Of a stretch of 64,000 nucleotides of DNA, positions 15,121-15,378 are shown in pieces. The translations under genes were made by a program, and so were the position numbers. How positions within the stretch are numbered: the first letter of the stretch is position 1; every line of letters starts with the position of its first letter. The stretch is from Escherichia coli (GTDB lineage: Bacteria > Pseudomonadota > Gammaproteobacteria > Enterobacterales > Enterobacteriaceae), in the NCBI RefSeq assembly GCF_044324785.1, contig NZ_CP172127.1. One strand, given 5' to 3'. The notes under the pieces were generated by a model. It saw only the letters and a program-made list of their open reading frames with translations, did not search any database and was not told the origin of the DNA.

Positions 15121-15378
15121 TCAATTTGGCAGGCAGCGTCTGCCAAATCTTTGCCGATGGAAATTCTGCAGACGGTGTCTGCAGAACTTCAACGTGTTGA
15201 TAAAAAGGTAAAAAAGCCTAATTTGGCGTAAGTTTTTTGCAGAGAACCCACGCTTATATCTTAGACTTAAATCCTTTGATAGTCGCTTGATTAGCTGCGC
15301 ACCATACGCAGCCCTAGCCTCGCCACCTTGTTCAAATTCGACAATCCGTCGGCCAATTTCCCAGTACGTCGCGGTCAT
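15121..15378 (-). pseudogene. yhcG: yhcG remnant: N-terminal DUF1016 fragment of a PD-(D/E)XK-type nuclease-family gene, truncated
   Basis: 85-aa ORF; first ~58 aa (TYWEIGRRIVEFEQGGEARAAYGAQLIKRLSKDLSLRYKRGFSAKNLRQIRLFY) have the conserved DUF1016 N-terminal signature, then a non-conserved tail and TGA; locus about 840 bp versus about 1.1 kb expected for intact yhcG. Confidence 0.6.

Follow-up and report, generated by a model that had tools for sequence, protein, structure and literature searches.

A yhcG pseudogene remnant beside a 101-residue gene at the variable nanQ–gltD locus of Escherichia coli

The closest described relative of the sequence studied here is yhcG (b3220) of E. coli K-12, whose product combines a DUF1016_N domain (PF17761) with a YhcG_C domain of the PD-(D/E)XK type (PF06250; COG4804). 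The nuclease domain occupies aa 235-375 and carries the motif E-D-E(I/L/V)K (PMC1189080). Genes of the DUF1016/YhcG, RhuM/DinD and GIY-YIG types are known to sit between the hsd core genes of Type I restriction-modification (R-M) operons (PMC9881135). The intact YhcG homologue of one of our comparison loci (L012) matches the PADLOC candidate system PDC-S02 (E 1.8e-132). For that candidate system, one preprint does not list the single cold-seep representative among the systems protective against T4, T5 and T7. A first-pass annotation placed yhcG in a defense or mobile context, a framing that we consider reasonable but unproven.

We analyzed a stretch of 64,000 nucleotides from E. coli (assembly GCF_044324785.1, contig NZ_CP172127.1), hereafter the window, and compared it with K-12 (L002, intact 375-aa yhcG), strain S10 (L001) and L012. 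Like the K-12 gene, the yhcG sequence of the window lies at the orthologous position by nanQ; its codons 11-96 are 88% identical to those of K-12 and the DNA homology extends to codon 135. Unlike the K-12 gene, it is without codons 1-10 and 136-375 and has in addition a 39-bp deletion and a frameshift. A second close relative is the allele of S10 and 55989, which has the same 3' breakpoint, the same 470-bp foreign segment (98.8% identity) and an identical 101-aa protein. However, the S10-type allele keeps the native yhcG start, the promoter and all three copies of an internal repeat, giving a 159-aa ORF, whereas the window has further lesions. In S10-type genomes gltD comes directly next to the fragment, whereas a 5.8-kb fimbrial operon occupies that place in the window. 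The third point of comparison is the accessory genes of Type I R-M operons. Like them, distant members of the 101-aa family lie between hsd core genes; unlike them, the window copy has no hsd neighbors and no Pfam model.

Anatomy of the yhcG remnant

The nan genes (nanT-nanE-nanK-nanQ) lie on the plus strand to the left of the locus. The product of nanQ matches PF04074 (E 2.1e-39), with 96% identity to K-12 nanQ, and homology to K-12 ends at the nanQ stop codon (14652). From there to the stop codon of the next gene (15488) there are 835 bp, compared with 1128 bp for K-12 yhcG, in agreement with the first-pass statement that the gap is too short for an intact yhcG. Two minus-strand ORFs fill this gap, one of 85 aa (15121-15378) and one of 113 aa (14728-15069). 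The features between nanQ and the fimbrial genes are as follows:

14188-14652, plus strand: nanQ (yhcH), which closes the nan operon and anchors the variable locus on its left
14653-14727, no strand: allele-specific spacer in place of the palindrome usually found downstream of nanQ in K-12 and ZH063
14728-15033 including the stop codon, minus strand: intact 101-aa gene of a family of about 100 aa, labelled 'transposase' or 'IS600 orf-like'
15034-15119, minus strand: conserved 86-bp leader of the 101-aa gene, with RBS AAGGA and the invariant block TCTCCTATTTTCGGTTTGTATATTCA
15120-15123, no strand: 4-nt junction CTCA between the foreign segment and the yhcG remnant, source of the TGA stop of the 85-aa ORF
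15121-15378, minus strand: 85-aa ORF with ATG start and TGA stop
15124-15459, minus strand: yhcG pseudogene remnant equivalent to K-12 codons 11-135, DUF1016_N part only (blastn, alignment and tblastn)
15182-15185, no strand: site of the 39-bp in-frame deletion
15205-15206, no strand: site of the 1-bp deletion
15469-15471, minus strand: in-frame TAG, three codons upstream of codon 11 (three-frame translation)

The 85-aa ORF carries the DUF1016 N-terminal signature, as had been noticed from the sequence. Its residues 1-62 match PF17761 (E 7.5e-19) at profile positions 21-81 of 137, and the rest of DUF1016_N is present in the window out of frame, minus one repeat. In terms of the K-12 protein, residues 1-58 of the ORF equal YhcG residues 39-96 and residues 59-85 form an out-of-frame tail. 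Searching all frames with K-12 YhcG (tblastn) recovered two alignments in two frames: codons 11-96 at 15459-15202 (88% identity), where ORF residue 58 corresponds to K-12 residue 96, and codons ~97-135, which reach down to 15125. Homology to yhcG DNA covers 15124-15435 by blastn and continues at the protein level to 15459 (codon 11). Alignment with K-12 yhcG and with other genomes, the check proposed at first pass, placed the breakpoints of the yhcG DNA at 15124 and 15459.

The ORF leaves the YhcG frame after residue 58 because of a 1-bp loss at ~15205/15206, where a G is missing beside an A-run; both the alignment and the change of frame between the two tblastn alignments locate it there. What had been read as a non-conserved tail after about 58 residues is therefore the product of a frameshift. 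Beyond it the YhcG reading goes on in another frame (FYQHVEVLQTPSAEFPSAKIWQTLPAK) down to 15125, and the homology itself ends at 15124. The second internal lesion removed one of three tandem 13-aa (39-bp) repeats. It is backed by the alignment, by a 13-residue gap in tblastn and by the direct repeat at 39-bp spacing. Every repeat unit holds a CAGACnnnGTCTG palindrome, which makes slippage or recombination between repeats the likely cause of this deletion. The breakpoint at 15124 also adjoins a yhcG palindrome with 11-bp arms, ATTTGGCAGrCAGCGTCTGCCAAAT.

Palindromes of the yhcG type do not behave as a dispersed repeat: the window has them at a single place, and each genome at a single locus. 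Just 3' of nanQ, K-12 (L002 2570-2600) and ZH063 (L027 ~6080-6110) have a palindrome that closely resembles the three 39-bp repeat units of yhcG (window 15123-15190), over 25 bp at 96% identity. Where its two alleles differ, the changes in one arm are compensated in the other. The palindrome is found at this single locus only and is lost from the allele shared by the window and S10. The spacer that stands in its place was seen only in S10-type and window-type loci, and an inverted-repeat search found there a hairpin with 11-bp arms (14686-14696 and 14717-14727), directly 3' of the 101-aa ORF. An Rfam scan of 14500-15600 returned zero matches at E <= 1. A promoter and terminator scan called no promoter for the remnant or the 101-aa gene at the threshold of the tool, and no canonical terminator.

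At its 5' end, the remnant has neither an ATG nor a GTG or TTG between the in-frame TAG and Met39 (15378) by three-frame translation; together with the TAG itself, this means that the native yhcG start is lost. In place of the first 10 codons of the K-12 gene and its 184-bp promoter region, the window has 28 bp, which adjoin the stop codon of the fimbrial gene. Thus the sequence had rightly been assigned to the DUF1016_N part, but it is an internal piece, without codons 1-10, start codon and promoter, and not an N-terminal fragment. At the other end, tblastn of K-12 YhcG found no match to anything beyond codon 135, including YhcG_C, anywhere in the 64 kb. The 3' 240 codons, with the entire PD-(D/E)XK domain, are therefore absent from the window, which bears out the earlier view that yhcG is non-functional here. 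Measured against the YhcG family, the window has the orthologous position (beside nanQ and convergent with the nan operon). It does not have an uninterrupted ORF of ~340-375 aa with a start codon, the ORF being of 85 aa, or a C-terminal PD-(D/E)XK domain (PF06250).

The foreign segment and its 101-residue gene

The 470 bp between nanQ and the remnant (14654-15123) have no counterpart in K-12, and the alignment does not show them as rearranged yhcG or intergenic DNA. Some 400 bp of this segment (14715-15119) are 84-86% identical to loci of Yersinia canariae and Enterobacter cloacae and 72% identical to one of Pantoea coffeiphila. These loci lie in unrelated contexts, either adjoining integrases that are accompanied by cargo genes or within a lambdoid prophage, in its nin region, and IS elements are also found near some close copies of the gene. 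The module had no match in the phage collection, and among plasmids only two partial Klebsiella matches. By blastn end points, the homology of the E. coli sequence to the copies of the other genera stops at 15118/15119. The unit common to Yersinia and Enterobacter reaches ~250 bp beyond the start codon on its upstream side. Of this, E. coli keeps only 86 bp, so that its junction falls within a longer unit and does not mark the end of a defined element. Within the leader, the block TCTCCTATTTTCGGTTTGTATATTCA is invariant from E. coli to Pantoea despite the overall identity of 72%. It may be a promoter or an operator; the consensus scan called no promoter there.

The longest form of the ORF in this segment encodes 113 aa, and the conserved form encodes 101 aa from the ATG at 15033. 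The protein is identical in the window and in S10 (dN = 0, dS = 0.045). Against the Yersinia and Enterobacter copies the dN/dS is 0.13-0.22, which indicates that the 101-aa ORF is a real gene under purifying selection. This selection suggests that the gene functions in E. coli, and it is the sole plausibly functional gene between nanQ and the fimbrial operon. The exact protein occurs on at least 1000 contigs. Among 5426 complete E. coli genomes, 725 have the gene, each in a single copy and in every case at the nanQ locus. The phage collection contains no copy, and plasmids almost none.

The names under which the protein is listed are inherited labels that our searches do not support. It has no match to any Pfam, NCBIfam, PHROG or PADLOC family; Pfam, NCBIfam and PHROGs gave no transposase catalytic, HTH or other DNA-binding domain, and an inverted-repeat search found no terminal inverted repeats flanking the gene. 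With a deeper alignment, the AF2 model reached a pLDDT of 92.6 (a shallow alignment gave an unusable model, pLDDT 43). This model has no structural neighbors among solved structures or viral predicted structures.

A family profile search retrieved 54 representatives, and the family alignment shows a conserved motif. Four of them (P0059, P0063, P0069 and P0077; 30-35% identity, E 2e-14 to 8e-7) are located in Type I R-M operons, with hsdR or hsdR-rmuC on one side and hsdM on the other. Each start codon overlaps or directly adjoins the stop codon of the preceding gene, so that translation of the two is apparently coupled. A further representative was located close to sieB, in the remnant of a P22-like prophage. 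Enterobacterial copies are found near integrases or in prophage; the window copy has nanQ on one side and the yhcG remnant on the other, not hsdR and hsdM, and there are no hsd genes nearby. Some larger proteins carry the same domain. For four of these (P0062, P0076, P0094 and P0095) we found no Pfam partner domains, and P0096 has an alpha/beta hydrolase domain (Pfam). The gene is therefore better described as encoding a defense-island or R-M-associated accessory protein. A more specific reading, which we regard as doubtful, is that the family is a roaming R-M or defense accessory (for instance a restriction modulator, or an anti-restriction or immunity factor) that replaced a PD-(D/E)XK candidate effector at a chromosomal defense hotspot, in S10-type strains perhaps acting jointly with DUF1016_N.

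The alternative fimbrial operon and the states of the locus

On the other side of the remnant lies a chaperone-usher fimbrial operon of five genes that replaces gltF-yhcADEF of K-12:

15436-21195, minus strand: the whole operon, 5.8 kb
15488-16153, minus strand: DUF1120 protein, YhcF-like (Pfam)
16150-16722, minus strand: 190-aa protein
16735-19176, minus strand: usher (Pfam)
19188-19889, minus strand: chaperone (Pfam)
20008-20790, minus strand: DUF1120 protein (Pfam)

The first-pass annotation had named the gene beside the remnant yhcF. Its product is only 27% identical to K-12 YhcF, and it belongs to a different fimbrial operon. The border of this operon clips the 5' end of yhcG, and homology to S10 resumes at 21196. 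No megablast match to the operon (15436-21195) was found in the 5426 RefSeq complete E. coli genomes. It is present in many draft assemblies, where the 190-aa protein is indexed in 631 blocks. Two of the loci with the same operon (L011 and L012) have a complete yhcG body (338 or 357 aa called) with the same clipped 5' end, and therefore the 5' and the 3' lesions of the window are independent events. In these two loci (L011 9345-10361, L012 9288-10361) yhcG is without its first ~10 codons and without a canonical start before Met39. It may represent a second, milder pseudogene state or encode a 338-aa protein that starts at Met39.

Sequence identity varies along the allele. Positions 15206-15400 are 95.9% identical to S10 and K-12 versus 93.3% to L012, and positions 15401-15487 are 96.6% identical to L012 versus 78% to S10. 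These tracts indicate that the window allele is a recombinational mosaic of S10-like and L012-like sequence. Over 13277-15487, nanK and nanQ are 95-96% identical to K-12 and S10, and the foreign module is 98.8% identical to S10. The repeat region (15124-15205) shows locally raised divergence, with only 88-90% identity to every comparator.

Among the 5426 complete genomes, yhcG is present at 80% or more of its length in 3349, the replacement allele with the same breakpoint (for instance in S10 and 55989) in 717-725 (~13%), and no yhcG match at all in 962. In ZH063, which has no yhcG, nanQ abuts gltD directly. The PGAP annotation labels the replacement allele 'DUF1016 N-terminal domain-containing protein, incomplete, missing C-terminus', followed by 'transposase' (WP_000639208.1). 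In the S10-type allele (L001 2951-3430), the 159-aa ORF contains DUF1016_N only, uses the native start and promoter and ends 16 nt upstream of the 101-aa gene. This exact ORF is intact on at least 1000 contigs; a functional DUF1016_N-only protein, or a two-gene arrangement, may therefore exist in S10-type strains.

The interval between nanQ and gltD is a variable locus, as had been suspected, with at least five states: yhcG intact next to the yhc fimbriae, yhcG clipped at its 5' end next to other fimbriae, the remnant alone, the remnant with other fimbriae, and nothing.

Origin of the remnant and what it means

We hold it to be very probable that 15124-15459 is a dead internal remnant of yhcG, that it results from several separate lesions, and that the 3' part of the gene was replaced by foreign DNA. 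The lesions can be arranged in three steps, an order that would follow from a handful of loci and not from a phylogeny. The 3' 240 codons and the nanQ-proximal palindrome would have been replaced by 470 bp of horizontally acquired DNA with the 101-aa gene in the same orientation. This replacement presumably arose once and then spread, because 717 complete genomes share the breakpoint. In the lineage with the alternative fimbriae, the border of the operon would then have taken out codons 1-10, the start codon and the promoter. Finally, in the sub-lineage of the window, a 39-bp deletion between the tandem palindromic repeats and a 1-bp frameshifting deletion may have followed, and the frameshift would have created the 85-aa ORF. 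Since there is no canonical start upstream of Met39 and no recognizable promoter or RBS, the remnant most probably yields no functional protein. Transcription that reads through from the fimbrial operon could cover both the remnant and the 101-aa gene.

Other explanations account for part of these data. The view that yhcG was simply deleted or gradually decayed, without any gain, fits the interval of 835 bp in place of the 1128 bp of the intact gene and the absence of the nuclease domain, and this much of the first-pass reading stands: the nuclease part was lost. However, what took its place is a segment (14654-15123) without K-12 counterpart, most of which is related to DNA of Yersinia, Enterobacter and Pantoea and which encodes an intact gene under purifying selection, so we give loss without gain little chance. 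Slightly less probable still is that yhcG was truncated by insertion of a real mobile element, an IS or miniature transposon, represented by the 101-aa 'transposase'. The database names would agree with this, as would the close copies in unrelated contexts near integrases and IS elements and in prophage. Against it, searches of Pfam, NCBIfam and PHROGs gave the protein neither a transposase or HTH domain nor any other, the gene has no terminal inverted repeats, and in E. coli it stays in one copy at one locus, with no copies in phages and almost none on plasmids. Moreover, the boundaries of the shared DNA vary by host, and distant homologues are fixed in Type I R-M operons.

A functional recombinant is also conceivable, in which the DUF1016_N sensor or partner was kept and the PD-(D/E)XK effector was swapped for the 101-aa protein, forming a new two-gene defense module. 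We consider this unlikely, if somewhat less so than a plain deletion. The S10-type arrangement speaks for it, with the native start and promoter, the 16-nt spacing and the many contigs on which the 159-aa ORF is intact, and so does the fact that Type I R-M operons can contain genes of the YhcG family as well as members of the 101-aa family. However, the start, one repeat and the reading frame of the DUF1016_N ORF are gone in the window and related loci, while the 101-aa protein is unchanged, so the two are not co-dependent. The widespread intactness of the 159-aa ORF may reflect only recent clonal spread, and the PDC-S02 representative was not among the protective systems in the preprint cited above. 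The notion that errors of sequencing or assembly in a homopolymer or repeat produced the frameshift and the 39-bp gap draws on their positions, the former beside an A-run and the latter within tandem repeats. We put next to no weight on it: over 14188-16200 (2013 bp) the window is matched with zero gaps by four other loci, each from a different assembly, one at 100% identity (L010, GCA_013355125.1) and three at 98.8-99.95% (L013, L014 and L015), which shows the indels to be real. To 'repair' both lesions would leave the gene still without 240 codons and a start, so that the intact frame allowed for at first pass, after correction of a sequencing error, does not exist here.

The dead remnant with a replaced 3' part is, as a finding, an ordinary and known pseudogene at a variable locus, because its truncation is already recognized by standard annotation. 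As a pseudogene call it carries little weight: PGAP flags the truncated allele in hundreds of genomes, and the function of yhcG is undemonstrated. For annotation, the 85-aa ORF does not merit a gene call, the neighboring fimbrial gene is not K-12 yhcF, the name 'transposase' is unsupported, and the nanQ-gltD interval has multiple states. The mislabelled 101-aa family in Type I R-M operons is only a mildly new lead. Nevertheless, this small-protein family is the one lead with wider value, for restriction or phage defense.
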